A DNA stretch of 64,000 bases from an uncultured Ignavibacteriaceae bacterium (GTDB taxonomy: Bacteria > Bacteroidota > Ignavibacteria > Ignavibacteriales > Ignavibacteriaceae): positions 33,122 to 97,121 of the forward strand of contig CAVORE010000008.1 in NCBI GenBank assembly GCA_963698525.1. Direction: 5' to 3'. A model generated the notes under the pieces. It saw only the letters and a program-made list of their open reading frames with translations. It made no database searches and was not told the origin of the DNA. The position numbers and the translations under genes were made by a program. Below, one piece after another: positions 3,132 through 63,634 of this stretch. Each line of letters begins with the position of its first letter. The first letter of the stretch is position 1.

Positions 3132-3144
3132 CGATAATAAAGTG

Positions 3145-3173: not shown

Positions 3174-3190
3174 GCACAGGAGGGCGTTAT

Positions 3191-3496: not shown

Positions 3497-3650
3497 ATTG
3501 AGATTTTTAGATTCAGTTAAATGAGTGTTCTTAATCTCTGGGTTTAAACTAGCAGAATAGCTTCAGAAATCAATTACATGATTATGTAATTATTTTGTTA
3601 TTTGGTGAGAAGATCATTTCGACACTACATATCTATGTAGGTGCCTGGTA

Positions 3651-4289: not shown

Positions 4290-4305
4290 TTTTAGTTTAA
4301 CAAAA

Positions 4306-7300
4306 TTATTTTAGAAGTGATTTTAACCTGTTCAATCTGCCGAGCTTTCCTGAAAAAATTACTGTAGTGCTTTTACCGATTTCGGTTTTCCAGCTCAGCT
4401 TTCCTTTTATTTTATTTGCCCGGTTCTCCATATTCCTGATTCCATTACCAAACTTAACTTTATTTAAATCAAATCCTGCACCGTCATCTTTAAGAATAAT
4501 TTCGATTATATCATTTTTATAAAAAGCTTCAAGTACTAATTTCTTACATCCACTGTGTTTTATTGCATTATTGATTGCCTCTTTGAACATCAGAAGAAGA
4601 TTCTGTTTATATTCCATCGGAAGTTTTATGTCATCACTTTTTTCAATATTATTAACCTGGAATGAAATTCCAATCGAACTGAAGAATTCATTATATGAAT
4701 CTTTCAGTTTTACGATAAGATCATGAAGTGAATCTCTTTGTGGATTTACAACCCAAACTATATCACTCATTGAATCAACCAACTGCCGTGCGGTTTCACT
4801 GATTTTTTGCAGATCCTTTTTGGCAACCGTACTTGAATGAGCATCGCTTCTCTCAGCAACTTCACTAAGAATTGAAATTTCAGTTAAGCCCGAGCCAATG
4901 TTATCGTGCAGGTCGGAAGCAATTTTTAGTTTCAACTTTTCAATTTCAAGCTGGCTCTTCACCCTGCTGGTTCCAATGTAGTAAATGAAAAAGACAACTG
5001 TCAATACAACCAGTGTAACGAACCACCAGGTTTCCCAAAACGGCGGATTGATAATTATTTTTATTGAAGCCGGATTCTCATTCCATATTCCATCTTCGTT
5101 AGTTCCTTTAACTAAAAATGTAAATTCTCCTGATGGGAGATTTGTATACGTTGCAGTTCTGCCGGTACCATCCGTTGATATCCAGGTTTCCTGAAAGCCC
5201 TGAAGAATGTAGCTGTATTTGTTTTGCTTTGGAATGGAAAAGTCGAGTGCGGAGAATTCTATCGAAACAAAATTCTGATCGTGGGATAAAATTAATTCTT
5301 CCGGTTCTCCTTTAATTCTCACATCCATTACTTTTATGTCGCTAATTACAATTGAAGGAACAAATTGATTAATAGCAACACTATCAGGATGAAAGTAGTT
5401 AAATCCATTTATGCCGCCGAAATACATCATACCATCTGCATCCTTGAAGTACGCTCCTCCGCTGAATTCCAGACTTTGAACTCCATCTTCAATTCCAAAT
5501 TGAGTAAATCTTTCTGTAGCCGTATCAAAAAGAAAAATTCCATCATCAGTACTCAGCCATAAATTTGAGTTACTATCTTCAAGTATTCCATATACGACTG
5601 CACTACTCAAGCCCTGAGCCATCGAAAAATTTTGAAATGAATTTGTTGAGGTGTTTAGTTTATTCAATCCCCCTCCTGAAGTTCCTACCCAGGAAGTATT
5701 ATCCGACGATATTAACAGAGAAAGAATCTTATCATTCAACGCTGCCCGGGAATTTTCAGAATCGGAAAAAGCTGCACTAAACTTTCCGGTATTTTCATCA
5801 AACTTGTTCAGACCTCCGCCATACGTTCCAACCAAAAATTTTTTATTTTCAACTTTTAAAATTGTGTAAACACGATCATCCGAAAGTGAAGAAGGATCAG
5901 ATGGATTATGACTGTATGCTTTAAATTGGGGTACTCCGGAAGTATTCTCTGAAAATGAAAGCTCATTTAACCCACCTCCAAACGTTGCAACCCAAATTTT
6001 ATTTTCGGATTCTATAAAAATATCGAGCACCTGGTTAGCCGAAAGTGAGTTGCTATCTTCCGGTACATTTTTAAATAAATCTATCTTACCGGTGATGCTA
6101 TTAATTCTGTTTAACCCTCCGCTGTAAGTCCCGATCCAGATATTTCCGAATTTATCTTCAGCTATTGATCTGATATGGTTATCACTGATTTCAAATTTTT
6201 TGCTGCCAGATTTTTTATAAATCTGTCGCTGCTTTGTTTTGAAGTTTAGAACATTTAAACCACCTCTGTATGTTCCGACCCAAAGATTTTCTTTACTATC
6301 CTTGAATAAAGACCAGACTACATCATCGTTGAGCTTTAGACTACCGGTTGATTTGCTATTGATAATACCAAATTTCAATTTAAATTTTTGAATTTTTGTA
6401 ACGCCTTCACCAAGATGTGAGCCGGCCCATAATATTCCGGATCTGTCAACAAAAAGTGAAAGTATTTCGACATCAGGAAAAACATTTTGCGGCGAAGAGA
6501 TTTTACTGAAATTTATAAAACTATCATCGCTGATATTGAATCTGTCAATTCCACCGCCGAATGTTCCAACCCATAAATATCCATCCGGATTCTGCTGAAT
6601 AGCCATCACCGTGTTATTTGAAAGATTACTATTCTTTTGATTATAACTAATGAACTTAGCTTCGTCTGGAGGGAGTTTATTATTGAATGAATCAAGTTTA
6701 TTCAGTCCGCCGTAGAAAGTACCGATCCAGATGTTTTGGTCTTTATCTTCAAAAAGAGTAATTGTTTTATTGTCACTAAGTGAGTTTTTATTTTTTTTAT
6801 CTGATGTATAATGGAGAAAACTTGCTGGTTTTGAATTTTCCTGGTGACGTTCAGCAGATTCATCCTGATTCAACTTGTTTAACCCGCCTCCAAAAGTTGC
6901 AATCCATATATCACTATTTGTGTTTAATAAAATATCAAGTATTCTATTTGAACTTAAGCTTGTTGGATTATCCTTATCGTATGAAATATGTTTGCCTGTT
7001 TTATTTTTCCGGTCGAATTTTACTATACCGTTTCCCCAGGTTCCTATCCATAAAAATCCTTCGTTGTCTTCAGTTATTGATGTAATTGTATTTATCTGAT
7101 TACGCGAGAAAGCAAGAGGGTATTCATAAAAATTTGTGTCGGGATTTTTTGTCGATGAGAAAAAATCGCTCGCAAAATATCTTTTGAAATCTTCGGTCTT
7201 CCTGTCAAAACAATTAAAATATCCATTTACAGTTCCCACCCAGATAAATCCTTCACTATCTTCGTAAAGTGCTGAGATAAAATTATCGGAGATTGAAGTA

Positions 7301-7551
7301 TTGTCAGATGGGTTATTTACGTAAACTCTGAACTGATAGCCATCATAGCGGTTAAGTCCATCAATTGTTCCAAGCCACAAATAACCCTGCTGATCTTGTA
7401 ACATCGCAAAAATAGTACTTTGTGAAAGCCCGTCTGCATCAGTAAATTGTTTGAAGATATATTCTTCAGTCTGAGGAAATGAAGAGATGGAAAGGAATAA
7501 AAACAGTATTACTTTTATAATGTTCATAGAATTAGAAGAAGTATCATCCAT
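4306..7551 (-). CDS. Hybrid-architecture sensor histidine kinase: signal peptide, two-component-regulator beta-propeller repeats + Y_Y_Y region, TM, HisKA_3/HATPase
   Basis: 1081 aa. It has many repeats of the type W(I/V)GT.GGGLN..., a TM segment WWFVTLVVLTVVFFIYY, then SDLHDNIGSGLTEI (H-box of the NarX/DesK type) and an ATPase region with NNAIKHSG...DDGAGF...GNGIRNM. It ends 17 nt upstream of its cognate regulator. Confidence 0.9.
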   Translation of the reverse strand: MDDTSSNSMNIIKVILFLFLSISSFPQTEEYIFKQFTDADGLSQSTIFAMLQDQQGYLWLGTIDGLNRYDGYQFRVYVNNPSDNTSISDNFISALYEDSEGFIWVGTVNGYFNCFDRKTEDFKRYFASDFFSSTKNPDTNFYEYPLAFSRNQINTITSITEDNEGFLWIGTWGNGIVKFDRKNKTGKHISYDKDNPTSLSSNRILDILLNTNSDIWIATFGGGLNKLNQDESAERHQENSKPASFLHYTSDKKNKNSLSDNKTITLFEDKDQNIWIGTFYGGLNKLDSFNNKLPPDEAKFISYNQKNSNLSNNTVMAIQQNPDGYLWVGTFGGGIDRFNISDDSFINFSKISSPQNVFPDVEILSLFVDRSGILWAGSHLGEGVTKIQKFKLKFGIINSKSTGSLKLNDDVVWSLFKDSKENLWVGTYRGGLNVLNFKTKQRQIYKKSGSKKFEISDNHIRSIAEDKFGNIWIGTYSGGLNRINSITGKIDLFKNVPEDSNSLSANQVLDIFIESENKIWVATFGGGLNELSFSENTSGVPQFKAYSHNPSDPSSLSDDRVYTILKVENKKFLVGTYGGGLNKFDENTGKFSAAFSDSENSRAALNDKILSLLISSDNTSWVGTSGGGLNKLNTSTNSFQNFSMAQGLSSAVVYGILEDSNSNLWLSTDDGIFLFDTATERFTQFGIEDGVQSLEFSGGAYFKDADGMMYFGGINGFNYFHPDSVAINQFVPSIVISDIKVMDVRIKGEPEELILSHDQNFVSIEFSALDFSIPKQNKYSYILQGFQETWISTDGTGRTATYTNLPSGEFTFLVKGTNEDGIWNENPASIKIIINPPFWETWWFVTLVVLTVVFFIYYIGTSRVKSQLEIEKLKLKIASDLHDNIGSGLTEISILSEVAERSDAHSSTVAKKDLQKISETARQLVDSMSDIVWVVNPQRDSLHDLIVKLKDSYNEFFSSIGISFQVNNIEKSDDIKLPMEYKQNLLLMFKEAINNAIKHSGCKKLVLEAFYKNDIIEIILKDDGAGFDLNKVKFGNGIRNMENRANKIKGKLSWKTEIGKSTTVIFSGKLGRLNRLKSLLK

Positions 7552-7832
7552 ATTTCTCTTAGGCGAAATATAGTAAATTGAATCATCATTTTAATTATAA
7601 CTTAGCTACGTATAGTTTGGGTTTCAATGAACTTTCATTTTGTACAACTTAGTGACTTAGCGTCTTTGTGGCTTAATTTCTTACTTATTTGTTTGCTACG
7701 AAACTGCCTGCCGGCAAGGCAGGGTCACAAAGAAATCATCAAATGCGTAAGGTTAATTATAATAAAAAATTGCTCATGTAGCTTTACACATTAAATTAAT
7801 TGATTGCAACATTATTTTTTTAACAAAAACGT

Positions 7833-41571: not shown

Positions 41572-42963
41572 TTATCTTCCTACAATCGCTTCAACTTCTT
41601 CAACAGTTTTAGGAATTGGTTTTGAACCCAACACTCTGTATCCATCTTCAGTTACTAAAACATCATCCTCGATTCTTATTCCACCGAAGTCTGTGAAATT
41701 TTCTAACATATCATAGTTGATAAATTCTGAAAAACGATTTTGTGTCTTCCACATATCAATCAACTCAGGAATAAAATAAATTCCAGGTTCAATGGTAAAA
41801 ATAAATCCAGGTTGAAGTGTTTTTGCCAATCTTAAATACTTTAAACCGAAATCATCACTTCGCTGTACACTTTCATCATAACCAACATGGTCCTCACCAA
41901 GTCCTTCCATATCGTGGACATCCAAGCCGAGCATGTGTCCTAAACCATGCGGGAAGAATAACGTATGTGCACCTGCGTTTACAGCCTCATCAGCATTACC
42001 GAACATTATACCCAGTTCAATTAATCCTGAAGCGATATCTTTAGCAGCTCCAAAATGAAGTTCTCTGTTTGTGATACCGGGTTTTACAGCATTGATGGCA
42101 TTCATTTCTGCTTTTAAAACTATCTGATATATGTCTTTTTGTTTATCGGAGAATTTTCCACCAACGGGAATCGTTCTTGTTATATCACTTGCATAATGCA
42201 GCTTACTTTCCGCACCGGAATCATTTACAAGCAAATCACCCGCTTTCATTTTATTATCGTAATAAGGGTTGTGAAGAGTCTGCCCATTAATTGAAACGAT
42301 TGGTCTGAACGAAAGTCCATAACCCAGAGAAAGGGCAATTCCTTCAATCATACCTGCAATTTTTTTCTCATCAGTCTCTGGCTTTACCATCTTCATAGCT
42401 GCAATATGCATTTTGGCAGCAATGTCAACAGCTTCGTCAATTTCAGATATTTCTTCGACTGATTTAATCGATCTTTGTGCCACCACGGCTTTGATAAGTT
42501 TTTCAGAAGTATAATCGTTTACATTCAAAGGATTCAATCCACTTATCGAGGAAAGTTTCATTATGTTTTCAATTCTGTACTGAGGAAGAAAATAAATCCT
42601 TCTGCCTTTTTTTATTGCGCTAATTATCTGTTCGTGTAATTTATCAGTCGTGGTTGCCCGCTTCACTCCTACATTTTCGGCAAAGTCATTAACGCTTGGT
42701 TGCCGACCATTCCAAACTACATCATCTATCGTCATATCGTTACCAAAGAGCGTTTCAAGATTATTATCAATATCGATTGTTGCAGCGAGCCCTGGTCTGT
42801 CAATTCCAAAGTAATATAGAAAAGTACTATCCTGCCGGAAATTATAGGTATTTGCTTTGTAGTTAGCAGGGCTGTCCTCATTGCCAAGAAATAAAAGTAA
42901 TCCTGAATCAAATTTTTCTTTTAATAATCTTCTGCGGTTAGTATAAGCGATTGTATCAAACAT
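41572..42963 (-). CDS. pepP: Xaa-Pro aminopeptidase / M24B family metallopeptidase
   Basis: 463 aa. Pita-bread-fold metal ligand motifs are present: YASDITRT, HGLGHMLGLDVHD, FTIEPGIY and GGIRIEDD. Confidence 0.85.
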   Translation of the reverse strand: MFDTIAYTNRRRLLKEKFDSGLLLFLGNEDSPANYKANTYNFRQDSTFLYYFGIDRPGLAATIDIDNNLETLFGNDMTIDDVVWNGRQPSVNDFAENVGVKRATTTDKLHEQIISAIKKGRRIYFLPQYRIENIMKLSSISGLNPLNVNDYTSEKLIKAVVAQRSIKSVEEISEIDEAVDIAAKMHIAAMKMVKPETDEKKIAGMIEGIALSLGYGLSFRPIVSINGQTLHNPYYDNKMKAGDLLVNDSGAESKLHYASDITRTIPVGGKFSDKQKDIYQIVLKAEMNAINAVKPGITNRELHFGAAKDIASGLIELGIMFGNADEAVNAGAHTLFFPHGLGHMLGLDVHDMEGLGEDHVGYDESVQRSDDFGLKYLRLAKTLQPGFIFTIEPGIYFIPELIDMWKTQNRFSEFINYDMLENFTDFGGIRIEDDVLVTEDGYRVLGSKPIPKTVEEVEAIVGR

Positions 42964-43220: not shown

Positions 43221-44582
43221 GTGAAAAAATTATACACTTACTCAAAACTTTCCGATAATTTCACATTTTTTATTTCATTGTTACTATTGTTTACACTTTC
43301 GGATACTTTTTCACAATATAAGTCAGAAGTTCACCATGCATTCCACAATACATTTGTAATAAGTATAGAAGGCGGATTAACCCTTCCACAGACAGATTAT
43401 CAAACGAATAAAACAGGATATGCTACAAGAATTGCGGGAGAATATTACTTTAAGACAAACTCGATACATCTATTCGGGTTGAAATTAAAGGTAGGCTACG
43501 ATCAGCTGCAGGGCGAAGATAGCCGTGGCAATGTTTCAACGCAGGATGGAATGAGAAATATACCACCAAAATTTACGACGGGGATATTCACAGGCGGGTT
43601 ATCAGCCACATACAGCCTATCAATAGGAGAAGTATTCTTCCCATACGTATCAGGAGGAATAACAAACTTATGGTTTGATCCCAAAGACGATCAGAATAAT
43701 GCATTAGAATACAATGCATCTAACAAATATGAAAAAAGTACAATAGCCTATAGTGTAGAAGTTGGTGTAAGGTATTTAGTGAGCGATAAAGTAAGTATAA
43801 ATCTATCAGTAAATCCTTACATCCCCCAAAGTGATTACCTGGATGACATAGCAGCGGCATATTCGAAAGATGCATATACGACAGTAATGATGGGCATCAC
43901 ATACTCACCGTTTTTCGATAATGATCCAGACAAAGATGGAATAAAAGGATCAGCAGACATATGTCCAGAGGAAGCAGAAGATTATGACGGCTATGAGGAT
44001 GAGGACGGCTGCCCGGAGAAGGATAATGATGGAGATGGGATAGAGGATAACAAGGATAAATGTCCGAATGAAGCGGAGGATAAAGATGGCTATGAGGATG
44101 AGGATGGCTGCCCGGAATTAGATAATGATGGAGATGGTATACCGGATGCAGCGGATAAATGTCCGAATGAAGCCGAAGATAAGGATGGAATAAGTGACGA
44201 GGATGGCTGTCCGGAATATGAAGAAGAAAGTGGCGTACAGAATTATATGCTGATGGGAGATGAGGTATTTGAGATGAACTCAGCGATGATAAAGATAGAA
44301 GGGAAGAAGAAATTAGATGAACTGATAAACGAGCTGGAGAAATATCCAGAAGGGAAGTGGCGGATAGAGGGACATATGGATTCGAATGGAAACAAGAGAT
44401 ATTTGAGGAACCTGTCGTTGGAACGAGCGAAGTCAGTGTTAGAATATTTGAGTTACTTTGGAGGAATGAAGAGAGGGAACTTCCAGGTATTTGGGATGGG
44501 AGATAACTATCCGGTAGGGGATAACAACACAGAAGAAGGCAGAAGACAGAACCGAAGAATTGAGATTATTGCTGAGGAGTAA
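43221..44582 (+). CDS. OmpA-family outer-membrane protein: N-terminal beta-barrel-like region, thrombospondin type 3 Ca-binding repeats, one OmpA_C domain
   Basis: GTG start and a signal-like N-terminus. It has CP.EAEDxDGYEDEDGCPExDNDGDGIxD repeats. The C-terminal W.IEGHMDSNGN...NL.LS..RA.SV..YL...GMGDNYPVGDNNTEEGRRQNRRIEI is the OmpA/MotB peptidoglycan-binding motif. Confidence 0.85.
   Translation: MKKLYTYSKLSDNFTFFISLLLLFTLSDTFSQYKSEVHHAFHNTFVISIEGGLTLPQTDYQTNKTGYATRIAGEYYFKTNSIHLFGLKLKVGYDQLQGEDSRGNVSTQDGMRNIPPKFTTGIFTGGLSATYSLSIGEVFFPYVSGGITNLWFDPKDDQNNALEYNASNKYEKSTIAYSVEVGVRYLVSDKVSINLSVNPYIPQSDYLDDIAAAYSKDAYTTVMMGITYSPFFDNDPDKDGIKGSADICPEEAEDYDGYEDEDGCPEKDNDGDGIEDNKDKCPNEAEDKDGYEDEDGCPELDNDGDGIPDAADKCPNEAEDKDGISDEDGCPEYEEESGVQNYMLMGDEVFEMNSAMIKIEGKKKLDELINELEKYPEGKWRIEGHMDSNGNKRYLRNLSLERAKSVLEYLSYFGGMKRGNFQVFGMGDNYPVGDNNTEEGRRQNRRIEIIAEE
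43329..44553 (+). repeat. Left copy of a 1225-bp near-identical direct repeat (partner 47705-48929)
   Basis: Base-by-base comparison at a constant offset of 4376 nt. I found a single mismatch (a at 43654 versus g at 48030, synonymous GGA/GGG). Identity begins at gttcaccatgcattcc and ends at agacagaacc. Confidence 0.9.
43962..44222 (+). repeat. About 2.6 tandem copies of a 99-bp (33-codon) thrombospondin-type-3 repeat unit; the same array recurs at 48338-48598
   Basis: Units start at 43962, 44061 and 44160 (tgtcc(a/g)(g/a)a(g/t)gaagc...). They encode CP(E/N)EAED(Y/K)DG(Y/I)(E/S)DEDGCPE.DNDGDGI.D..DK. Confidence 0.85.
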
Positions 44583-44597
44583 TTATATACGAATAAT

Positions 44598-44626
44598 AAA
44601 AAACCTGATTTAAAGTCAGGTTTTTT
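44598..44626. terminator. Bidirectional rho-independent terminator
   Basis: aaaaaacctga (44598-44608) pairs with tcaggtttttt (44616-44626) around a 7-nt loop. The A-run and T-run give a U-tract on either strand. It lies between the convergent stops at 44582 (+) and 44631 (-). Confidence 0.8.
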
Positions 44627-44630
44627 TATT

Positions 44631-45101
44631 CTATTTTAATTTCTTGATGATCTTTGCTGGAACACCGGCAACGATCGTGTTTGCCGGGACATCCTTTGTA
44701 ACGACTGCACCGGCACCAACAATGGCATTTTCACCTACCGTAACTCCGCACATAATTGTTGATGAAGAACCGATTGAAGCCCCCTTCTTTATAAAAGTCT
44801 CGATAACTTTCCAGTCTGAGTCTATTTGCATTGAACCATCTTCGTTCGTTGCTCTTGGGTTCTTATCATTAATGAATGTAACGTTATGACCAACAAAAAC
44901 ATTATCCTCAATGTGCACACCTTCGCAAATAAATGTGTGAGATGATATTTTACAGTTCTTGCCAATGAAAGCATTCTTCTGAATTTCAACAAATGTTCCC
45001 ACTTTTGTTCCGTCGTCAATTGAACAGCCGTAAAGATTCACAAAGTCGTAAATCTTTACGTCCTTCCCAAGTTTAACGTTATTGATAATTTGCTTGCTCA
45101 T
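44631..45101 (-). CDS. Hexapeptide-repeat N-acetyltransferase (WbpD/WlbB-like)
   Basis: 156 aa, nearly all left-handed beta-helix repeats ([30 protein letters not shown]...[17 protein letters not shown]). It follows an oxidoreductase and an aminotransferase in the same operon. Confidence 0.75.
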
Positions 45102-45197
45102 ATAATTTTTTGATTGTTTAATTAAAATTATTTGAATTGTTCAAAGGAAAAGAAAGTTTTTTGACAAACGTGGTTTATTTATCAAAGCCTTTAATCA

Positions 45198-46211
45198 TCA
45201 AGCAGAAATTTTATCCAGCTCAACAATCTGTCCCATGTTTGCAAGAGAAATATCCGCTGCTTCGAGCAGCTTAATTACACTGAGGCCGTCTTTTCCGCTG
45301 GTTAAAGGTTGTCTGTTTTCAGTTATTGCCGATATGAATTCTTGAGTTCCAAGTGCAAGAGCTTCCGTTTGATTTACTTTTGGTGAAAACATATCTCCGA
45401 TTCTGTATTGAACCAGTGCCTCATGAATACTCTCGGTTGATTTGAATTCAACCCCGCTGTCATAAACTTTTATCTTCTCAAAATTTTCCATATCATCATA
45501 TACAAGCATTTTCTTATCTCCACCAACTATAATTCTCCTGATCTTTACAGGTGATACCCAATTAACATGAAAATGAGCGAAGCAATTATCTTCAAAGTAA
45601 ATGCATATATGAGCCAGATTTTCTTTCCCCTTAAAATTTGCGATACCATTTGCAACAAGGGCTTTTGCATTGTGATTACTAAGCAGGTAACTCATGACTG
45701 AAAGGTCATGCGGAGCCAGATCCCAGATAACGTTTACATCTCTTTGAAAGAGGCCCAGATTAATTCTTTCTGAATCAAAGTATATGATATTTCCCAACTC
45801 ATTTTTATTAATGAGTTCCTTAATTTTAATTACTGCCCCGTTGTAAATGAAAGTGTGATCCACAAATATTTTAAGATTTTTCCGATCAGCAATCTCTATC
45901 AATTCTTTGGCTTCCGAGGAGGTAGAAGTAAAAGGTTTTTCTACCCAAATGTGTTTGCCTGCTTCAAGAGATTTTTTTGCCAATTCATAGTGCGTATCAA
46001 CAGGAGTAGAAATAACTATAATATCCAGGTCCCCATCTATCAAACTTACACAGTCCTTAGAGAGTTCAGCAGCCGGTAACTTTTCTTTGATGATCTGAAG
46101 CCTGTTTTCTCTTATATCACATGCAACAACTTTTTTCACATCTTTATGAACGAGAAAATTTCTTACCAAGTTTGGACCCCAATATCCGAGACCAATTACT
46201 CCAACTTTCAT
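45198..46211 (-). CDS. Gfo/Idh/MocA-family NAD-dependent sugar oxidoreductase (WbpB/WlbA-like)
   Basis: MKVGVIGLGYWGPNLVRNF is a Rossmann N-terminus, with EKP in HIWVEKPF. 337 aa, with a 4-nt overlap with the upstream aminotransferase. Confidence 0.8.
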   Translation of the reverse strand: MKVGVIGLGYWGPNLVRNFLVHKDVKKVVACDIRENRLQIIKEKLPAAELSKDCVSLIDGDLDIIVISTPVDTHYELAKKSLEAGKHIWVEKPFTSTSSEAKELIEIADRKNLKIFVDHTFIYNGAVIKIKELINKNELGNIIYFDSERINLGLFQRDVNVIWDLAPHDLSVMSYLLSNHNAKALVANGIANFKGKENLAHICIYFEDNCFAHFHVNWVSPVKIRRIIVGGDKKMLVYDDMENFEKIKVYDSGVEFKSTESIHEALVQYRIGDMFSPKVNQTEALALGTQEFISAITENRQPLTSGKDGLSVIKLLEAADISLANMGQIVELDKISA

Positions 46212-47350
46212 TTTAATGTCCTAAAAAATTTAATAATTGTACTGGCAACGTATTCAATCTGTTCCTCACTTAATTCAGGAAACATTGGTAGCGATAATCC
46301 ACTTTCGGCTAGCTTTTCTGTTTCTGGAAAATCACAGTGTTTGTGCCCGAGGTGTCTGAAGCAATCCTGTAAGTGAAGAGGAACAGGGTAATGCAATCCT
46401 GTGGAAATATTTTGTTCTTGAAGATAAGCCTGCAGTTTATCTCTTGTCTCTTGATTTTTTTGATCGCTTCCGACATTTACTCTTATCACATAAAGATGAT
46501 AAACATGTTTGTGGTGAAGCAATTCAACCGGTAGTACAATTTGTTCGATATTCCCGAGTAGCTCTCGATATTTTTCAGCAACTCTTCTTCTTTGGTTAGT
46601 CCATTTCTCAATATGTTTTAACTTTACATTAAGTACGGCACCTTGAATTCCTTCCATCCTGTAATTATGACCAAAAGATTCATGATAATATTTTTTTGAT
46701 TGGCCATGTTCACGCAGCTTTTTAATCTTTTGGAAAATATCCGCACTATTTGTGACGACTGCACCAGCTTCACCATAGGCTCCAAGATTCTTTCCAGGAT
46801 AAAAACTGAATGAAGTAACTTCAGAAAAACCTCCAACTTTTTTTCCTTTGTATTCAGATAAATGTGCTTGTGCTGCATCCTCCACAAGATGAATATCTTT
46901 TTTCTCAGAAATTTTTTTTAATTCATCCATATCGGCTGACTGACCATAAAGATGAACTGCTACAATTGCTTTAGTCTTTTTGGTGATAGATTTTTCTACC
47001 TTTTCAGGATCGATGTTATAACTTTTACTGTGACAATCAACGAAAACAGGAGTAGCGCCGCAAAGCGTTGCGCCCCAGGCTGTAGCAATAAAAGTATTTG
47101 CAGGAATGATAACTTCATCACCAGGTCCTATTCCCAGGCTCCATAATGCAAGGTGATTTCCATCTGTACCCGAGCTTGTGCCGAGACAAAAATTTACATC
47201 TTGAATTTTGGCAAATTCCTTTTCAAACTCTGCTACAGCAGGTCCTAAAACAAATGCGGTGCTATCCAACACCTTCTGAATAGCAGTATCAATCTCGGGT
47301 TTGATTGATTTGTATTGTAATTTTAAATCAAGAAATGGAACTTGCATCAT
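46208..47350 (-). CDS. DegT/DnrJ/EryC1/StrS-family PLP sugar aminotransferase (WbpE/WlbC-like)
   Basis: 380 aa. Motifs: GDEVIIPANTFIAT, VHLYGQ.ADM and SFSFYPGKNLGAYGEAGAVVTN (PLP-lysine region). Confidence 0.85.
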   Translation of the reverse strand: MMQVPFLDLKLQYKSIKPEIDTAIQKVLDSTAFVLGPAVAEFEKEFAKIQDVNFCLGTSSGTDGNHLALWSLGIGPGDEVIIPANTFIATAWGATLCGATPVFVDCHSKSYNIDPEKVEKSITKKTKAIVAVHLYGQSADMDELKKISEKKDIHLVEDAAQAHLSEYKGKKVGGFSEVTSFSFYPGKNLGAYGEAGAVVTNSADIFQKIKKLREHGQSKKYYHESFGHNYRMEGIQGAVLNVKLKHIEKWTNQRRRVAEKYRELLGNIEQIVLPVELLHHKHVYHLYVIRVNVGSDQKNQETRDKLQAYLQEQNISTGLHYPVPLHLQDCFRHLGHKHCDFPETEKLAESGLSLPMFPELSEEQIEYVASTIIKFFRTLK

Positions 47351-47596
47351 ATTTCTCTTTTTAGATTAATTGTTTTTATAATTGCCAGGATAGAATAAAT
47401 TTAATACGTCGATTTAATTTCATAAGAAAGCGATTTTATACGTTGATAAATGAAAATGCATATAAATATCATTATTTTACTTGTAAAGTTAACTATTTGT
47501 GTGGTATAATTAAATTATCATTTATAAAGATTTCAATTTGAGTTTCATTATATGATTTCTAAAAGTTTATTAATAAAATAAAAAACTAAATTTTAT

Positions 47597-49342
47597 ATGC
47601 AGTATTCTATTAAAGCATCGCTTAACCTTAACCAACCGTTGAAGGTAATGGTAATTTTTGTATTATTTTTTATTACAAATATTTATTCGCAGATACCTCA
47701 ATCTGTTCACCATGCATTCCACAATACATTTGTAATAAGTATAGAAGGCGGATTAACCCTTCCACAGACAGATTATCAAACGAATAAAACAGGATATGCT
47801 ACAAGAATTGCGGGAGAATATTACTTTAAGACAAACTCGATACATCTATTCGGGTTGAAATTAAAGGTAGGCTACGATCAGCTGCAGGGCGAAGATAGCC
47901 GTGGCAATGTTTCAACGCAGGATGGAATGAGAAATATACCACCAAAATTTACGACGGGGATATTCACAGGCGGGTTATCAGCCACATACAGCCTATCAAT
48001 AGGAGAAGTATTCTTCCCATACGTATCAGGGGGAATAACAAACTTATGGTTTGATCCCAAAGACGATCAGAATAATGCATTAGAATACAATGCATCTAAC
48101 AAATATGAAAAAAGTACAATAGCCTATAGTGTAGAAGTTGGTGTAAGGTATTTAGTGAGCGATAAAGTAAGTATAAATCTATCAGTAAATCCTTACATCC
48201 CCCAAAGTGATTACCTGGATGACATAGCAGCGGCATATTCGAAAGATGCATATACGACAGTAATGATGGGCATCACATACTCACCGTTTTTCGATAATGA
48301 TCCAGACAAAGATGGAATAAAAGGATCAGCAGACATATGTCCAGAGGAAGCAGAAGATTATGACGGCTATGAGGATGAGGACGGCTGCCCGGAGAAGGAT
48401 AATGATGGAGATGGGATAGAGGATAACAAGGATAAATGTCCGAATGAAGCGGAGGATAAAGATGGCTATGAGGATGAGGATGGCTGCCCGGAATTAGATA
48501 ATGATGGAGATGGTATACCGGATGCAGCGGATAAATGTCCGAATGAAGCCGAAGATAAGGATGGAATAAGTGACGAGGATGGCTGTCCGGAATATGAAGA
48601 AGAAAGTGGCGTACAGAATTATATGCTGATGGGAGATGAGGTATTTGAGATGAACTCAGCGATGATAAAGATAGAAGGGAAGAAGAAATTAGATGAACTG
48701 ATAAACGAGCTGGAGAAATATCCAGAAGGGAAGTGGCGGATAGAGGGACATATGGATTCGAATGGAAACAAGAGATATTTGAGGAACCTGTCGTTGGAAC
48801 GAGCGAAGTCAGTGTTAGAATATTTGAGTTACTTTGGAGGAATGAAGAGAGGGAACTTCCAGGTATTTGGGATGGGAGATAACTATCCGGTAGGGGATAA
48901 CAACACAGAAGAAGGCAGAAGACAGAACCAACGAATTGAAATTATTCCTGAAGCAACGAATACTACGGTTGATAACACTCTCACAACGCAAGAAGAATTT
49001 AATCAGTTTATTTTGCGGGGTGATGATTCCTTTGAGCAAAATTCAGCTACATTAATGGATCTAGCGAAAATACTGTTAAGTGAAATAGCTGAGTATATAA
49101 AAAATGAACCGGATAGTAACTGGGGGATCGAAGGGTACACAGATAATCGAGGCTCGGCATCCGAACAGAAAAGAATAACATTAGATAGAGCATACGCCGT
49201 ATATGATTATCTGATTTCCGAAGGTGTTCCGGAAGACAAATTAACCGTATCTGGGCTCGGTAGTTCTAATCCAATTGCAAATAATGACACTGAAAAAGGT
49301 AGAAGTGCTAATAGAAGAGTATTAATAATCAGAGAGGATTAA
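47597..49342 (+). CDS. OmpA-family outer-membrane protein, paralog of 43221-44582, with TSP3 repeats and two tandem OmpA_C domains
   Basis: Residues about 37-444 are identical to the paralog because of the DNA repeat. It has a unique signal region. The extra C-terminal OmpA domain reads WGIEGYTDNRGSASEQKRITLDRAYAVYDYL...GLGSSNPIANNDTEKGRSANRRVLI. Confidence 0.85.
   Translation: MQYSIKASLNLNQPLKVMVIFVLFFITNIYSQIPQSVHHAFHNTFVISIEGGLTLPQTDYQTNKTGYATRIAGEYYFKTNSIHLFGLKLKVGYDQLQGEDSRGNVSTQDGMRNIPPKFTTGIFTGGLSATYSLSIGEVFFPYVSGGITNLWFDPKDDQNNALEYNASNKYEKSTIAYSVEVGVRYLVSDKVSINLSVNPYIPQSDYLDDIAAAYSKDAYTTVMMGITYSPFFDNDPDKDGIKGSADICPEEAEDYDGYEDEDGCPEKDNDGDGIEDNKDKCPNEAEDKDGYEDEDGCPELDNDGDGIPDAADKCPNEAEDKDGISDEDGCPEYEEESGVQNYMLMGDEVFEMNSAMIKIEGKKKLDELINELEKYPEGKWRIEGHMDSNGNKRYLRNLSLERAKSVLEYLSYFGGMKRGNFQVFGMGDNYPVGDNNTEEGRRQNQRIEIIPEATNTTVDNTLTTQEEFNQFILRGDDSFEQNSATLMDLAKILLSEIAEYIKNEPDSNWGIEGYTDNRGSASEQKRITLDRAYAVYDYLISEGVPEDKLTVSGLGSSNPIANNDTEKGRSANRRVLIIRED
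47705..48929 (+). repeat. Right copy of the 1225-bp direct repeat
   Basis: See 43329-44553. Confidence 0.9.
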
Positions 49343-49482: not shown

Positions 49483-50676
49483 ATGAGTCAAAAAACTAAT
49501 AATTTTTTCACACCACTGAATATATTAATAATTATAACTTTTGTCGGGCTTTCCATCTATATCTATCGTGGATTCTATTTTATTGATTCCACAGTTTACT
49601 ATTTACACTCGTGGACCGCTATTTTATTAAAAGTAATTAAATTAATTTTTCCGGTCTTTGTCATCATTTTGATCATTTTATATCGTTCAGTTTACCTAAA
49701 GAAAATACAATTAAGTTCTGTCATCATTCTATTTTTTACCCTCTTCTTTTTCCTATTATTGGTTTACCCATTTGCGGATTATTTTTACAGGAAGTCCGTG
49801 ACAGCAAATATCGGAGAATTTCATTCTTACCTGCAAATAAATCCTCCATCAATTAATAATTTTGACTCAACAAAGTTTAACATTTTTTGTCTTGGTGGTT
49901 CTACTACTGAATTTAGGGATGAATCAGGTAGAGATTGGCCAGGTTTAGTTCAACAAAAAATCAATGAAGAACAGGTATTTAAAGATGTGAGAGTATTTAA
50001 TTTAGGAAAACAATGGTACACAACACAGCATATTCTTATTTATTATACATTAGAGCTGAAGCATTATAAACCGGATGCAATAATTGTTATGGAAAGCATC
50101 AATGATCTGCTGCACAATGCTGATTTTTCGTGGCTCAGTGCTGGTGAATTTCGAGATGATTACGGCAACTTTCTTGGGCCTTTGACAAGGTTAATTAAAT
50201 ATGGAAGTTTTGCAGAATTCTTCGTACATACGATTGACGGCTTGTGGTATCAGGAAAAACCAGTTGAAATAGACACGAAGGAATTTCCGGGTTTAAAAGC
50301 TTTTGAAAGAAATCTGAAAACTTTAATCTCGCTGGCAAAAGAAGATGAGACAAAAATTATCCTAATTACTCAGCCAAACATTTATAAAGATTCTATGAGT
50401 TTACAAGAAATAGGTTCGCTAGAGATGCTTAATGGCGAAGCAATAGGTAACGGGAAAAGGTGGACGTTTAATACAGCCTTGAAGGGATTCAAACTTTACA
50501 GAGATAAAATGAAGGAGATTGCTTTGATAAACGATGTTGTTTACCTGATAGACCTGGAAAATATTGTTCCTAAAAATTTAGAATATTTTTATGATGATGT
50601 ACACTTTAAATCAAAAACATACGATTTGATTTCATCATTCATTTCAGAAGAATTGAAAAAAGTATTAAAAAAATAA
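49483..50676 (+). CDS. Membrane-anchored SGNH/GDSL-like hydrolase-fold protein (possible polysaccharide O-acyl esterase/transferase)
   Basis: The N-terminal 100 aa have 3 hydrophobic segments. FCLGGSTTE is a block-I-like motif with a Ser nucleophile, and DDVHF is a block-V DxxH. Confidence 0.45.
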   Translation: MSQKTNNFFTPLNILIIITFVGLSIYIYRGFYFIDSTVYYLHSWTAILLKVIKLIFPVFVIILIILYRSVYLKKIQLSSVIILFFTLFFFLLLVYPFADYFYRKSVTANIGEFHSYLQINPPSINNFDSTKFNIFCLGGSTTEFRDESGRDWPGLVQQKINEEQVFKDVRVFNLGKQWYTTQHILIYYTLELKHYKPDAIIVMESINDLLHNADFSWLSAGEFRDDYGNFLGPLTRLIKYGSFAEFFVHTIDGLWYQEKPVEIDTKEFPGLKAFERNLKTLISLAKEDETKIILITQPNIYKDSMSLQEIGSLEMLNGEAIGNGKRWTFNTALKGFKLYRDKMKEIALINDVVYLIDLENIVPKNLEYFYDDVHFKSKTYDLISSFISEELKKVLKK

Positions 50677-54553: not shown

Positions 54554-55492
54554 TCATTTTTTTTTCTTGTAAATAGTGTGACCCTTTTTTGCTGCTTCGA
54601 TCAGTGTTTCAGTTACTACATTTGCTTGCGTTAGAAAAAAAGGAATTCCCTGATATTTCCATTCTAATACTTTGGCTTTTTTTAATATTTTTTTAAAAGA
54701 TCTCTTGTCAAAATGATATTCCGGACTCTTAATTCGTAAATTATAAACGAAAGTATTTCCCATCTCATCAACACAAGTAACAGGAAGAATCTCCGAATAT
54801 AAAGAAAGTGGAAATTCACTTTTCATAATATCTTCAGTAGAGTGAATCTGGGTAAGCGCGAATTTACGGGCACCTATACCTAAAATCATTGTTCGACACT
54901 TTAGCATTTCCTCGAATGGTGTTCCTTCTCCAAAAGTTGTCTCTGCATTATGGTGATTGCAGGTCAATTTATCTGCCAGGGGACCCAATGAACATATGCT
55001 ATGGGTAGGATGAATGCTTCTTTTAACTTTCGCAGTTCGCCTGAACATTTCTGAAAACATCCCCATTTCAGAAACAGTTTTGCGAACGTCAAATACATTT
55101 ATTCCACTTTTATAATGTTCTTTAGCCTGATAACTTGATCCGAGAAAAAAGGTTGGCATCGCAAGTGTGATATTTTTCTGTTCACAAAACGAAATTATCA
55201 AAGATAGTAATTTACCAGGCTGGCCGGTATACATTGGAATCATATCATTGAATGAGCTATGAATCATCAGCACATCAAACTTCCCATCAAATTTTTGTAA
55301 TATATTATTGAAAATCTCTTCGTCATTGGCCGTACCATGAAGTAACCTGAAAATCCATTTATTTCTAATTTTAAATTTAAATATTGAAGCATAAATAGTA
55401 TTTCCGGACTCTAGTGTTAAGAGTATACTAAACACTTTCCTTACAATATTATTAAAGAAACTTTTCATTAATTTTACTAAACATTGATTCAA
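54554..55492 (-). CDS. AAC(3)/Antibiotic_NAT-family N-acetyltransferase fold protein
   Basis: MIHSSFNDM..., LAMPTF, SIHPTHSICSLGP and LTQIHSTED resemble the conserved blocks of aminoglycoside 3-N-acetyltransferase-fold enzymes. It lies in a polysaccharide locus. Confidence 0.55.
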   Translation of the reverse strand: MNQCLVKLMKSFFNNIVRKVFSILLTLESGNTIYASIFKFKIRNKWIFRLLHGTANDEEIFNNILQKFDGKFDVLMIHSSFNDMIPMYTGQPGKLLSLIISFCEQKNITLAMPTFFLGSSYQAKEHYKSGINVFDVRKTVSEMGMFSEMFRRTAKVKRSIHPTHSICSLGPLADKLTCNHHNAETTFGEGTPFEEMLKCRTMILGIGARKFALTQIHSTEDIMKSEFPLSLYSEILPVTCVDEMGNTFVYNLRIKSPEYHFDKRSFKKILKKAKVLEWKYQGIPFFLTQANVVTETLIEAAKKGHTIYKKKK

Positions 55493-58964: not shown

Positions 58965-59813
58965 ATGGAGAGAAATATGAAGCTTTTTAGTTCCCTTCTG
59001 GGAGTGATGTTATTTTGGTATGCCTGTTCTGCAGAAGCAGCAACTATCAATGGCAGATTTGTAATTACCAATTCAAATGCTTTGACGACTTCAGTACTTC
59101 TTCAAATTAACACTGATTCAGGTGTTGATGATCTTGGTGGAGCAACTATTGTTTTTAGCTTTAATACTTCAGCTATCTCCATAAATGAGAATCCTGTTCA
59201 GGATATTGATTACACTTTCCACAATTTTAGCGGTAACAATTATTCTTCAGCAACTGTAACCAGACCGATGACGAATACAATCTGGGTAAACATAGATCTT
59301 CCATTCCTCAATAGTAACAACGGAACCGTTATATCAGGAAGTCCTGAATGGACAGATGTTGTTACAATTCATTTTATTACAGTAGATGCCAATGCATCTC
59401 AGGATTTATCCTGGCTAACAAATAGTCTGTTCTGGGGAATTTATGATGCAGACAATTCTACTTTATCGGGAACAGGAGTGTTTGAAGATTTTCCAACCTC
59501 TGTCGACCCAGGTTCAGACTTTCCTTCGCAATTTATATTGGAGCAAAACTATCCAAATCCTTTTAATCCAAGCACAAAGATTAGATATACAGTGCCATCT
59601 AATACTGCGAGTGGAACGAGTCAGTCTCAGTTAGTCATTCTTAAAGTTTATGACGTTCTAGGAAATGAAATTGCAACTTTGGTTGACGAAGAGAAAGGAC
59701 CCGGAAATTATGAGGTTGAATTCTCTTCTGATAACCTGGCATCGGGAATTTATATTTATAGTTTGCACAGTCCAGGGTTTTCTGAAAATAAAAAAATGGT
59801 AATTTTACGCTGA
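58965..59813 (+). CDS. Secreted protein with T9SS (Por) C-terminal sorting domain; intact member of a local 3-copy family
   Basis: Signal peptide MKLFSSLLGVMLFWYACSAEA. The C-terminal EQNYPNPFNPSTKIRYTVP...LKVYDVLGNEIATLVDEEKGPGNYEVEF...LASGIYIYSL...KKMVILR is a type A T9SS CTD. Confidence 0.85.
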   Translation: MERNMKLFSSLLGVMLFWYACSAEAATINGRFVITNSNALTTSVLLQINTDSGVDDLGGATIVFSFNTSAISINENPVQDIDYTFHNFSGNNYSSATVTRPMTNTIWVNIDLPFLNSNNGTVISGSPEWTDVVTIHFITVDANASQDLSWLTNSLFWGIYDADNSTLSGTGVFEDFPTSVDPGSDFPSQFILEQNYPNPFNPSTKIRYTVPSNTASGTSQSQLVILKVYDVLGNEIATLVDEEKGPGNYEVEFSSDNLASGIYIYSLHSPGFSENKKMVILR

Positions 59814-60505
59814 GATAATTTCCTAAGCGTTCAGACATTTCAAAATTTATCCCACTTTAACAAATCCATTCAAGAAAATTTAAATAGTTACTTTCCTTGA
59901 ATCAAAGAAGATGGCTTTATTATAATGATAAAGTTAACAAAAAGTAAATTATGAAAATGATCAAAAAAAAGAGTCTCCATCTTCAACTAAAACTGAATTT
60001 ATGGCTTCGCTTCAATTTAGTATTCTATTTATTGGAACCTTTGACTTAAACTTACATTTTAATATAATAAAACCGTGTAATAATTATTAATCTGGAAATT
60101 ATTAAGTTACGTTTTGCAAAAGTATTTGCTACAAACACAATTTAATTAAACCAGATAAACTAGTGCGGAGAAAAATAGGTTTGTTTAAATGGCATTTCTA
60201 TCTAACATATTGCATAACGTGAGTTATTTATTTGATTTCACTACATAGAATTCCAATTCATTTATCTGATAGTTAATCAAGGTTTTAATTATATATCATT
60301 GGGTTAACATTCATGGAGGTCTAAAAAATTATGATTTTCAACAGAAATACTATTTATAAAGCCTTTTTCCTCTTTGTGTTTCTCTTACTTTGTAGTGTGG
60401 TTATTTGGCTAAATTTTAACTCTGATCAGATATTGATTTGGACGAAAAAAAGTGGTATGAATCTTAAAAATCCGCAGACAATAATCCCCATGTATTTTCA
60501 ATGCT

Positions 60506-61081
60506 ATGTCCACGTATCGTTTATTTGTTTTTAGTATTTTTCCTGTTTTATATATACTCTCTATTATTATTTATCGATTTTACACTGAACAATTTAAAAA
60601 CCATATTACTAAGCTTCAAAGGTTTATTGTTATTATTATTTTGTTTATATCTTTTCTCTACGGAATTACAACAAACTATAAATATGCAAAAATAGGATAC
60701 AATGACGGTGTTCAATTTGATCTCGACGGTTTTAAAGGAAGGCTATTCACTGGCATTGAAAATGATAATTCTCAAAAACTTTTTTATAACACAGTAAAAA
60801 ACAAAATTAATTCCGATGATATTATTTTTACACCCTCTCCTTTTCTTACAAATTTCTACTTATCAAATCAAGTATATGATCTGAATCAAATATTCAATTC
60901 CGAAATAAAAGGGGATAAATATTACGTGATTATTAGCAGAGAATACTATCCTAATGAAATTTCCAAAGGCTATAGTGAATTAAGAAATTTAGTTGTTAGT
61001 ATTAGAGATACATTGATCATTGGAAATTTTCATTTATTAGAAATTGATAAAGAGCAATTTCAAATTGAAAATCCCAAGTAA
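60506..61081 (+). CDS. Hypothetical membrane protein; possibly the 3' remnant of a larger membrane-protein gene (the overlapping ORF 60331-60534 may be its frameshifted 5' part)
   Basis: Two hydrophobic segments followed by a soluble 120-aa tail. No motif recognised. Confidence 0.3.
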   Translation: MSTYRLFVFSIFPVLYILSIIIYRFYTEQFKNHITKLQRFIVIIILFISFLYGITTNYKYAKIGYNDGVQFDLDGFKGRLFTGIENDNSQKLFYNTVKNKINSDDIIFTPSPFLTNFYLSNQVYDLNQIFNSEIKGDKYYVIISREYYPNEISKGYSELRNLVVSIRDTLIIGNFHLLEIDKEQFQIENPK

Positions 61082-61084
61082 AAC

Positions 61085-61802
61085 TTCAACTCTATATAGA
61101 TGCAGCTACTAATGATCTTGGCGGAGCAACTATTGTTTTTAGTTTTAATACATCAGCTATAAACTCCACAAGAGAATCCTGTTAGTGATATTGATTACAC
61201 ATTCCATAATTTTAGCGGTAACAATTATTCTTTAGCAACTATAACCAGACCGATGACGAATACAATCTGGGTAAACATAGATCTTCCATTCGTCAATAGT
61301 AACAACGGAACCGTTATATCTGGAAGTCCTGAATGGACAGATGTTGTAACAATTCATTTTACTACTGTAGATGCGAATGCATCTCAAGATTTATCCTGGC
61401 TAACAGCATAGTCTGTTCTGGGGAATTTATGATGCAGACAATTCTACTTTATCGGGAACAGGTGTGTTTGAAGATTTTCCGACTTCTGTCGAACCGGGTT
61501 TAGATTTTCCTTCGCAATTTATATTAGAGCAGAATTATCCAAATCCATTTAATCCCAGCACAAAGATTAGATATACAATCCCGTATACGGATGCAAATAG
61601 CACTGCTCCAGTCAAACTAAAGGTTTACGATATGCTTGGTAATGAATTAGCAATATTGGTTGACGAAGATAAAGAACCTGGTATTTATGAAGTAGAATTT
61701 TCTGCCATTAATGGAGTATCAAACTTAGCATCGGGTATTTACATCTACAGAATTGAGAGTGCAGGTTTTGTTGATACAAAGAAAATGGTATTACTTAAAT
61801 AG
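61085..61802 (+). pseudogene. 5'-truncated, frameshifted paralog of 58965-59813 (T9SS cargo)
   Basis: DNA from about 61086 aligns with 59100-59813 (NDLGGATIVFSFNTSAI...TRPMTNTIWVNIDLPF.NSNNGTVISGSPEWTDVVTIHF). There is no signal peptide or start codon. In-frame stops and frame changes occur near 61170-61190 and 61410. Only the last 112 codons (61464-61802, CTD) are open. Confidence 0.75.
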
Positions 61803-62511
61803 TATCATATGATACTAACCATTAATAACAATTAAATTCATTTTTAAGAATTATTTTTTGCCATTCGGAGTTGACACCTGCTTTAATAATTAAGAAGAAT
61901 ATTTGTTTAAAAAATAACCTATTCTTTCTTATCCAAGCGTGTATTCCTTTCCCAGATAATTATACCTCAATCTCATTTAAGCTGAATTAATTTTTTTAAT
62001 TTTGGAATGTAAGGTGAATTCCAAAGTTAAAGGATTACAAACAACACCATACCACGATACTCTACGTTTTCAGAATAATATCCTTAATGCTGGTGCTCAT
62101 ATCCGTGAGATATTTGCTGCACTAAAAAGTCATTCAATTGCAAGTCACTTAAAATTAAAAAGTAATTGTATCCTATTGGCAAGAATAAAGTGTTAATCCA
62201 GTCTTAAAATTAATCTGACGGTCAGTTTCGTCGTCCGTCATTTACTACCAAACTACTTACTACTTTTTTGATTCAAATTCGTTGTAGAATACAATGGTAT
62301 TCAAGTTGAATAGTTAGGCAAACAGCGATAAGAATGGTTGGCTAAAAAGATAAACTCTGGATGAAGTTTAGAACACAGAACCACTTATATACTGCTTTGA
62401 CACATCAGAGCTAAGGAATGGCTGGTTTGAATTCGGCTTTGATAGATACGATGCCGAATGACTTAAATAGAGTTCGGGTAAATACCGAATGTAACTTAAA
62501 CTCTTTCAGAA

Positions 62512-63634
62512 ATGGAGAGAATTATGAGGCCAATTAACTTCTGGATATTAAGCATAATATTTGGCTATGCAACCTTTTCTTTTCCCACGGATGTAAATGG
62601 ACGATTCACTGTAGCGAATATTACAGGTTCAAAGATTTCCGTTTTACTTCAATTAAATACAAATACCGGGGCGGATGATCTTGGCGGTGCAACTGTGGTT
62701 TTTAGTTTTGATACAACGGCTGTTTCTATTATTGAGTATCCGGTAAAGAATGCAGACTATTTTTTTCACAACTTTTCCGAGGGAAATTATTCATCCGCAA
62801 CAATAACAAGACCTATGAGAGATAAAATCTGGGTAAATATTGATCTGCCTTTCAACAACAATAATAATGGAACAGTTGTATCAGCAAACCCAGGATGGTC
62901 TGATGTTGTAACAATTCATTTTGATATTGTTGATCCTAATGGAACAGCAACTCTATCCTGGCAAACGGCAAGCCCATTCTGGGGAATTTATGATGCAAAC
63001 AACACTACTCTCTGGCAGACAGATGAATTTGAAGATCTTTTCAGTCCGCTCCCGGTTGAGCTTATTTCATTTTCTGCAACTTTCCTTTCAAATCAAAATG
63101 TATTATTGGAATGGAAAACCGCTTCTTCATTAAATAACCTTGGTTTCGAAATTCAAAAATCATATACTATTACAGAAGAGTGGATAAGCATTGGGTTTGT
63201 TGAAAATCAAGGAGATCCAAACTCATTAACCGAATATAGTTTTACTGATGTAACATTGCATAATTTTCCTATTGTGAGGTACCGGTTAAAGTCAATTGAT
63301 CACGATGGATCCTTCGAATATTCTGAAGTAATTGAAATTAATACATTGCCAATGAGCTATGAACTTTCTCAGAATTATCCTAATCCCTTTAATCCAAGCA
63401 CAAAAATAAAATTCACAATCCCATTTGTAGAATCAGCTCTAAGAATGAGCGTTTAGTGAATTGAAAGTTTATGATATGCTGGGTAATGAAGTTACAACAT
63501 TAGTTGACGAAGAGAAGGAGCCTGGAATTTATGAGGTTGAATTTTCTAAACCTGAGTTGACTTCTGGAATATATATTTACCGGTTACAAGCGTCTGAGTT
63601 TACTGAAACGAAGAAGATGGTTTTACTTCGTTAA
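62512..63634 (+). pseudogene. Third paralog (with an extra middle domain) whose T9SS C-terminal domain is split by a frameshift
   Basis: The ORF stops at 63456 just after QNYPNPFNPSTKIKFTIP. The rest of the CTD (KVYDMLGNEVTTLVDEEKEPGIYEVEFSKPELTSGIYIYRLQASEFTETKKMVLLR, stop 63632-63634) continues in another frame. The total span of 1123 nt is not a multiple of 3. Confidence 0.7.

Follow-up and report, generated by a model that had tools for sequence, protein, structure and literature searches.

The window analysed here, a stretch of 64,000 nucleotides (nt) from an uncultured Ignavibacteriaceae bacterium (contig CAVORE010000008.1, positions 33,122 to 97,121), carries two ompA genes that we term ompA-A and ompA-B. 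They lie on the same strand, share a direct repeat of 1225 bp that is almost perfectly conserved, and bracket a three-gene operon whose products are predicted to act on amino sugars. We conclude that the repeat very probably goes back to a recent gene conversion from ompA-A to ompA-B within a gene pair that is itself old, and that this event is part of a recurrent concerted evolution of the two genes.

A discrete tract of near-identity in two ompA genes

By repeat search, base-by-base comparison and self-BLAST, the two copies of the repeat (Table 1) are identical at 1224 of 1225 positions and stand at a constant offset of 4376 nt. The sole mismatch, 43655 A versus 48031 G, falls on the third base of the codon for Gly145 (GGA/GGG) and is synonymous. 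The original prediction, which was made from the DNA letters of the window, had described a repeat with this offset and a single synonymous difference, and the comparison bears it out. Self-BLAST found no third copy in the 64 kb of the window.

The borders of the tract are the more informative part. It had been proposed that identity is confined to the core of the two genes. This holds for the near-identity, which ends at 44553, but homology runs on at 19 of 24 positions as far as 44577 and 48953. Beyond these positions, where the A gene stops, the homology between the two genes vanishes. Among 20000 random pairs of 24-mers drawn from the window none reached an identity of 19/24. There are 5 differences in the 24 nt immediately 3' of the tract versus 1 in the 1225 nt within it (Fisher p=1e-8). 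On the other side, identity drops to about 48% in the 48 nt immediately 5' of the tract, and it is 35% over the whole region coding for the signal peptide. The tract is a discrete, sharp-bordered segment that lies beside homologous but diverged sequence. A fresh duplication would be expected to show uniform identity, and the clustering of differences just outside the tract therefore fits a conversion between older copies.

The gene pair is older than the lineage of the window

The nearest genomes to the window are those of uncultured Ignavibacteriaceae. A homologue search and the inspection of 34 sequences set two types of ompA gene apart. A-type proteins start with 'MK[KI]LY..', and their genes stand directly after pepP wherever the context could be seen. 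B-type proteins have a signal peptide ending in '..N[IV]YPQ..' and two OmpA_C domains, the second of which contains 'IEGYTDN'. The window holds one gene of each type. The first gene, ompA-A (ompA-1), combines an A-type N-terminus, which matches those of the proteins P0010 and P0009 and of the L001 gene, with a short tail that is also of the A type, and the second, ompA-B (ompA-2), has a signal peptide and a second domain of the B type.

The full order pepP, ompA-A, acetyltransferase, dehydrogenase, aminotransferase, ompA-B is also found in L009 (a 131-kb contig), L023 (a 49-kb contig) and L024, and in part in L025 and L026. Both ompA genes are present in L010, where the operon does not stand between them. 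L005, L007, L014, L015, L017 and L018 carry the A gene, then the acetyltransferase, then the dehydrogenase where the contig reaches that far; no B gene was seen on these contigs. In L001 and L008 there is only one ompA, a two-domain gene with an A-type N-terminus, and the operon is missing. In L001, L005, L007-L010, L023 and L024 the aminopeptidase gene pepP is the immediate 5' neighbour of the A-type ompA. Because the same order with diverged paralogs occurs in L009, L023 and L024, the two-gene arrangement is orthologous and older than the lineage of the window. A scan of metagenome contigs for the locus returned short contigs only.

Some genes of these relatives are split into two adjacent open reading frames (ORFs), namely at 2966-4329, 6434-7568 and 8001-9750 in L023, at 16139-17240 in L001 and at 5848-7240 in L010. 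The splits affect ompA-A, the aminotransferase gene, ompA-B, wecB and pepP, and look like frameshift errors of assembly, possibly from long reads, rather than true pseudogenes.

Mosaic identity between the paralogs of related genomes

The identity between the A and B genes of one genome differs strikingly from one relative to the next. In L009 it is flat, at 55-75% of nucleotides (54.5% at the protein level). For L024 the value is about 85% over the 5' half and about 65% over the 3' half. L010 shows three short tracts of 95-100% on a background of 60-70%, and L023 a single tract of 540 nt at 96-100% that stops where the first OmpA_C domain does. In the window, identity is 99.9% across the entire 1225 nt. 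Exact runs measure 197 nt in L023 and 124 nt in L010, with estimated chance probabilities of about 1e-11 and about 6e-9 given the overall identity of each pair. Such mosaic patterns are the signature of repeated, independent gene conversion. The paralogs of the window are also more alike than orthologs are, with 99.9% between the A and B cores versus 77.6% for the best ortholog among the fetched loci, the A-type gene of L005, and about 95% for a relative in the metagenome run X2.

The original prediction had left conversion and segmental duplication side by side and had suggested a comparison with related strains. That comparison strongly supports conversion, through the mosaic tracts and the age of the pair, and it speaks against a fresh duplication, since the pair is old and is found elsewhere in orthologous position with diverged paralogs.

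Direction and age of the transfer

The segments of ompA-B disagree in their trees. In the barrel tree the B-type barrels form a clade of their own, and both copies of the window fall with the A-type proteins P0010 and P0011 (support 98 in the Shimodaira-Hasegawa approximate likelihood ratio test, SH-aLRT). A constraint test, in which the B group was defined by signal peptide and tail and not by the barrel, rejected the placement of the ompA-B barrel of the window in the B-type clade (approximately unbiased, AU, test, p=0.0003; difference in log-likelihood, delta lnL, 67). The second-domain tail of the same gene clusters with the B-gene tails of L009 and L010 (weak support, 77/92). At the nucleotide level, among the fetched loci, the best match of the core is the A-type gene of L005 already named, and B-type genes reach at most 69%. 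Because the barrel groups with the A type, its placement among the B type is rejected and the best nucleotide match is of the A type, we read the transfer as going from the A gene, as donor, to the B gene.

The age of the event can be set against a relative from a metagenome run (X2), which is about 95% identical to the window. The core of X2 differs from that of the window at 41 of 864 positions versus 1 in 1225 between the two copies within the window, and the conversion is therefore far younger than the split between the two.

Two genes outside the window also have a mixed structure. The closest full-length A-type relative, P0010 (L005 8792-10159), has a strongly divergent OmpA_C domain with an end branch of 0.8 in the domain tree and is another mosaic gene. 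The protein P0007 of L011 has a barrel that is almost identical to those of one-domain A-type genes of its own clade (compared with the L010 A gene and P0015/P0016), and its OmpA_C domain 2 falls among tails from a distant clade, which suggests an exchange of 3' ends between lineages.

A model for the homogenisation of the pair

The events at this locus are best explained as follows. Old ompA paralogs on the same strand bracket a conserved three-gene aminosugar operon in Ignavibacteriaceae, and in the lineage of the window a very recent, intrachromosomal and non-reciprocal homologous recombination very probably copied the A core over the B core. The converted tract takes in the barrel, the TSP3 units and OmpA_C domain 1, which is nearly all of the sequence that both genes have in common. 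On the 5' side it breaks off where the regions coding for the signal peptides are too dissimilar for pairing, and on the 3' side at the end of the A gene. The near-identity, the orthologous gene order, the mosaic tracts, the conflict between the trees and the direction of transfer are seen directly in the data, and the machinery is deduced from them. The machinery was probably homologous recombination of the RecA type with resolution without crossover, acting on paralogs that are 4.4 kb apart. As an outcome, the same mature core, with barrel, TSP3 linker and first anchor domain, is now encoded behind two promoters, and the two products differ only by the extra C-terminal, peptidoglycan-binding OmpA_C domain. 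The same process has acted independently in related genomes, on other tracts and at other times, and the pair thereby evolves in concert. The homogenisation might be neutral or beneficial.

Alternative explanations

Several points weigh against the conversion as we describe it. The A-to-B direction was derived from protein trees with about 200 columns and limited sampling. Both the two-copy structure and the near-perfect identity are read from the assembly, and polishing with short, multi-mapped reads could inflate the identity of copies that in fact differ by a few percent.

A different role of the repeat may be considered, although we regard it as doubtful. The ompA core would be a maintained, portable block of homology at the edge of a hypervariable glycan locus. 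Through recurrent homogenisation, a pair of 1.2-kb direct repeats would stay in place on either side of the operon, populations would keep giving rise to operon-less or amplified variants, and the core would offer a left-hand crossover site for the exchange of whole cassettes between Ignavibacteriaceae strains. If this were true, the block would be a built-in generator of diversity for surface glycans or phage receptors, and exchanged glycan cassettes would take the 3' end of ompA along with them.

Improbable in our judgement is the proposal that the repeats form a recombinational switch. A crossover between them would delete the operon as a pop-out circle, or amplify it, and create a chimeric ompA, giving heritable variation of a surface glycan, and homogenisation would keep the switch active. 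Two direct repeats of this length (1.2 kb) and similarity (99.9%) are indeed good substrates for homologous recombination and can delete or amplify the DNA between them. The locus downstream of ompA is strongly variable among relatives, some of which have the operon and some not, and their glycosyl-phosphotransferases differ as well, and the single-gene forms of L001 and L008, which lack the operon, would agree with such deletions. However, three observations speak against a switch in regular use. A deletion is irreversible and does not make a true on/off switch. The predicted chimera of an A-type signal peptide and a B-type tail ('IEGYTDN') was found in none of the roughly 120 best-scoring homologues listed; proteins with an A-type N-terminus either have one domain or carry a tail of the 'IEGYMDN' type. 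At least five lineages have retained both the gene pair and the operon in spite of recurrent conversion, a sign that selection may act against deletions. No recombinant junction appeared in the contigs of the public runs, but these could not have revealed one. None of them crosses a repeat boundary informatively, the core has 1225 bp, and short contigs are unable to link the A-side 5' flank with the B-side 3' flank.

We consider it quite improbable that the second copy of the core, or its near-perfect identity, is an artefact of assembly or polishing, in which the repeat was traversed twice, a 4.4-kb circle or a strain variant was threaded in, or multi-mapping reads homogenised the copies. An exact repeat of 1.2 kb is hard for short reads, and the public run data consist of contigs only (Logan contigs from four metagenomes, about 2-6x depth). 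In these data, fragments in X1, X3 and X4 are 100% identical to the window, and nothing of the locus was found in the runs X6 and X7. The core contig of X2 has a depth of 5.85 versus 3.4-4.1 for its flanks, a hint of a collapsed two-copy core that is too weak to use. Against an artefact stands the unique segment of 3151 bp, which has the core on both sides, and a linear molecule with this structure must carry two cores. The single-nucleotide polymorphism between the copies shows that the assembler held them apart, and the partial conversion tracts of L010 and L023 show that the process is biological. The recurrence of the gene order on independent contigs, several of which are long (L009, L023, L024), likewise makes an artefact unlikely.

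The least credible alternative is a recent segmental duplication or Campbell-type insertion of a 4376-bp unit (ompA core, short tail, operon and new 5' end) into a single ancestral ompA, for which L001, L008 and L011, with one ompA at the site (A-type N-terminus, two OmpA_C domains) and no operon, resemble an empty site, but which is contradicted by the two-gene order with diverged paralogs that predates the lineage, by the separate B type of the signal peptide and tail of ompA-B, which are like those of the L009 and L010 B genes, by the different tail clade ('IEGYMDN') of the single-gene relatives, and by the diverged homologous flank, which misfits a fresh copy.

For the same reason, the two-gene order in L009, L023 and L024, we rejected L001 as an empty site of a fresh insertion. 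We likewise rejected the one-gene, two-domain forms as products of a recent A-by-B deletion, since their tails are a separate clade; an ancient fusion is a possible origin of these forms. The conversion of an old pair is thus the explanation that we retain.

Genes and features of the locus

The gene calls and domains of the original prediction, with one versus two OmpA_C domains and the operon between the genes, agree with the Pfam domains. OMP_b-brl, TSP_3 and OmpA exceed the gathering score in both proteins. For these three domains in turn, P0001 gives 34.9/28.7, 37.4/25 and 59.3/27.2 bits, and P0002 gives 34.5, 36.7 and 130 bits, where the OmpA value comes from two stretches. A search for contigs that encode the exact ompA-B protein returned no record. 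Besides the large repeat, the 99-nt TSP3 units within the core offer a smaller stretch on which slippage or recombination could act, and they are an assembly hazard. The spacer upstream of ompA-B contains conserved blocks common to the window and L009, and the GDSL gene also neighbours the locus in L001 and L009.

Table 1. Coordinates of the repeat, the two ompA genes, the operon and the flanking features in the window
Feature	Position	Strand	Description
Xaa-Pro aminopeptidase pepP	41572..42963	-	conserved left anchor; Pfam Peptidase_M24 and AMP_N
ompA-A (ompA-1), 453 aa	43221..44582	+	signal peptide 'VKKLYTYS..', OMP_b-brl barrel, TSP_3 repeats, one OmpA_C
Repeat copy 1, 1225 bp	43329..44553	+	first mature-protein codons through end of OmpA_C domain 1
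Internal TSP3 repeat units	43956..44188	+	99-nt period, about 80% alike at the DNA level; mirrored at 48332-48564
Diverged homologous 3' flank	44554..44577	+	19/24 identical to 48930-48953
Terminator-like hairpin	44598..44626		predicted for both strands; separates the convergent ompA-A and acetyltransferase genes
Hexapeptide-repeat sugar N-acetyltransferase (WbpD/WlbB/QdtC-like), 156 aa	44631..45101	-	Pfam Hexapep
GFO/IDH/MocA nucleotide-sugar 3-dehydrogenase-like protein, 337 aa	45198..46211	-	Pfam GFO_IDH_MocA
DegT-family sugar aminotransferase, 380 aa	46208..47350	-	Pfam DegT_DnrJ_EryC1, 403 bits
Divergent intergenic spacer, 246 nt	47351..47596		aminotransferase to ompA-B; promoter-like site 47481-47510
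ompA-B (ompA-2), 581 aa	47597..49342	+	B-type signal peptide '..ITNIYSQIPQS', core, linker, second OmpA_C with 'IEGYTDN'
Repeat copy 2, 1225 bp	47705..48929	+	inside ompA-B
GDSL-family lipase/acylhydrolase	49483..50676	+	right neighbour of ompA-B; Pfam

The operon between the copies consists of three enzyme classes, co-oriented on the minus strand, whose genes overlap or lie close together; the aminotransferase gene shares 4 nt at its 3' end with the start of the dehydrogenase gene. Judged from their sequences, the enzymes are predicted to fall into the classes responsible for making 3-acetamido-3-deoxy nucleotide sugars. Among structures in the PDB, the aminotransferase is nearest to QdtB (2.2e-105), followed by WbpE (3e-74), and the acetyltransferase is nearest to a WxcM-like protein (8.5e-30), with WlbB (3mqg) at 5.9e-24. 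The dehydrogenase matches generic GFO enzymes, 7bvj (4.9e-14), which we take to be GnnA, and 3q2k (1.1e-8), presumably WlbA. NCBIfam equivalog scores of the operon enzymes are all under their cutoffs, as with the dehydrogenase, which reaches 165 bits against the UDP-GlcNAc 3-dehydrogenase model (cutoff 450). The earlier description of a WbpB/E/D-like operon is right in kind, since a 3-dehydrogenase, a 3-aminotransferase and an N-acetyltransferase are present, but QdtB, WxcM-like and GnnA-like relatives are at least as close to these enzymes as WbpB/E/D are.

Downstream of the pepP-adjacent ompA lies a highly variable polysaccharide locus (43-55 kb in the window, compared with L001, L005 and L007-L010). 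Its contents differ by genome and include differing initiating Bac_transf genes (479-695 aa), epimerases, a GDSL or aldo-keto reductase gene and cargo genes of the type IX secretion system (T9SS). The 3' end of ompA, with one or two OmpA_C domains, changes along with the downstream cassette, as if ompA were a crossover anchor for cassette exchange. Beside a wecB-like epimerase gene, an ORF of 312 aa (54554-55492, minus strand) matches Antibiotic_NAT, the aminoglycoside 3-N-acetyltransferase family, with 98.5 bits; in a polysaccharide locus, the target of its product may be an amino sugar instead of a drug. Farther along, at 58965-63456, lies a small family of paralogous T9SS-cargo genes with the Por_Secre_tail domain. 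They share a 700-nt repeat of 83% identity (59115-59801 versus 61099-61790), with a weaker third copy near 62634-63039, and the middle copy has shrunk to an ORF of 112 aa that may be a pseudogene.

Significance and comparison with known systems

Gene conversion between paralogs is a known phenomenon, of which the window offers a clean new example, and the basic understanding of the process is unchanged. Conversion between paralogs of outer membrane proteins (OMPs) is well documented in host-associated pathogens; here it is found in uncultured, free-living Ignavibacteriaceae. Together with its relatives the window forms a graded natural series, from no conversion through old partial tracts and recent patches to a fresh full-length tract, in which tract lengths and boundaries can be read directly. 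For annotation and binning the locus is a warning, as near-identical repeats of 1.2 kb break short-read assemblies and ompA trees mislead. The locus also marks the edge of a highly variable polysaccharide cluster, and a 3' end of ompA that travels with the cassette may help to explain cassette exchange.

The operon resembles WbpB/WbpE/WbpD of Pseudomonas, WlbA/WlbC/WlbB of Bordetella, GnnA/GnnB and QdtB/QdtC in having the same three enzyme classes, here in one operon, namely a 3-dehydrogenase of the GFO/IDH/MocA type, a DegT 3-aminotransferase and an N-acetyltransferase of the left-handed beta-helix kind. The Pseudomonas and Bordetella enzymes make UDP-2,3-diacetamido-2,3-dideoxy sugars, and the nearest solved relatives of the window's enzymes differ from them, being QdtB and a WxcM-like protein. 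The proteins that flank the operon have an architecture of barrel, TSP3 repeats and OmpA_C that is known in the Fibrobacteres-Chlorobi-Bacteroidetes (FCB) group; a literature search for TSP3-OmpA proteins in Ignavibacteria gave nothing specific. With such envelope proteins and with TraB of Myxococcus (NCBIfam NF033763) they have in common thrombospondin type-3 calcium-binding repeats followed by a peptidoglycan-binding OmpA_C domain. However, they score 95-134 bits against a TraB cutoff of 700 and are not of that family, and the B gene has a second OmpA_C domain.

Closer in process is the babA/babB pair of Helicobacter pylori, the textbook case of gene conversion between OMP paralogs (PMC3960876, PMC4552749). 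Both systems show non-reciprocal intrachromosomal transfer between OMP paralogs that leaves an identical middle with locus-specific ends and context, and in both the transfer recurs across lineages. The differences are equally clear. The paralogs of the window share one strand at a distance of 4.4 kb, with an operon for sugar biosynthesis between them; their host is a free-living environmental bacterium without a context of host immunity; and their tract includes the periplasmic TSP3 and OmpA_C parts, beyond the surface-exposed parts, and does not imply a switching of expression.

Concerted evolution through gene conversion has been described in general terms, as a short-term process in bacterial OMP paralogs and as a long-lasting one in tufA/tufB and other prokaryotic genes (PMC6053082). 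As in tufA/tufB, the old duplication of ompA can be told by distinct flanks, conversion is recurrent, and the copies are more alike within than between genomes. Unlike in tufA/tufB, conversion of the ompA pair is patchy and lineage-specific, with none in L009, so that homogenisation is not continuously maintained, and the two genes that it joins differ in their number of domains.

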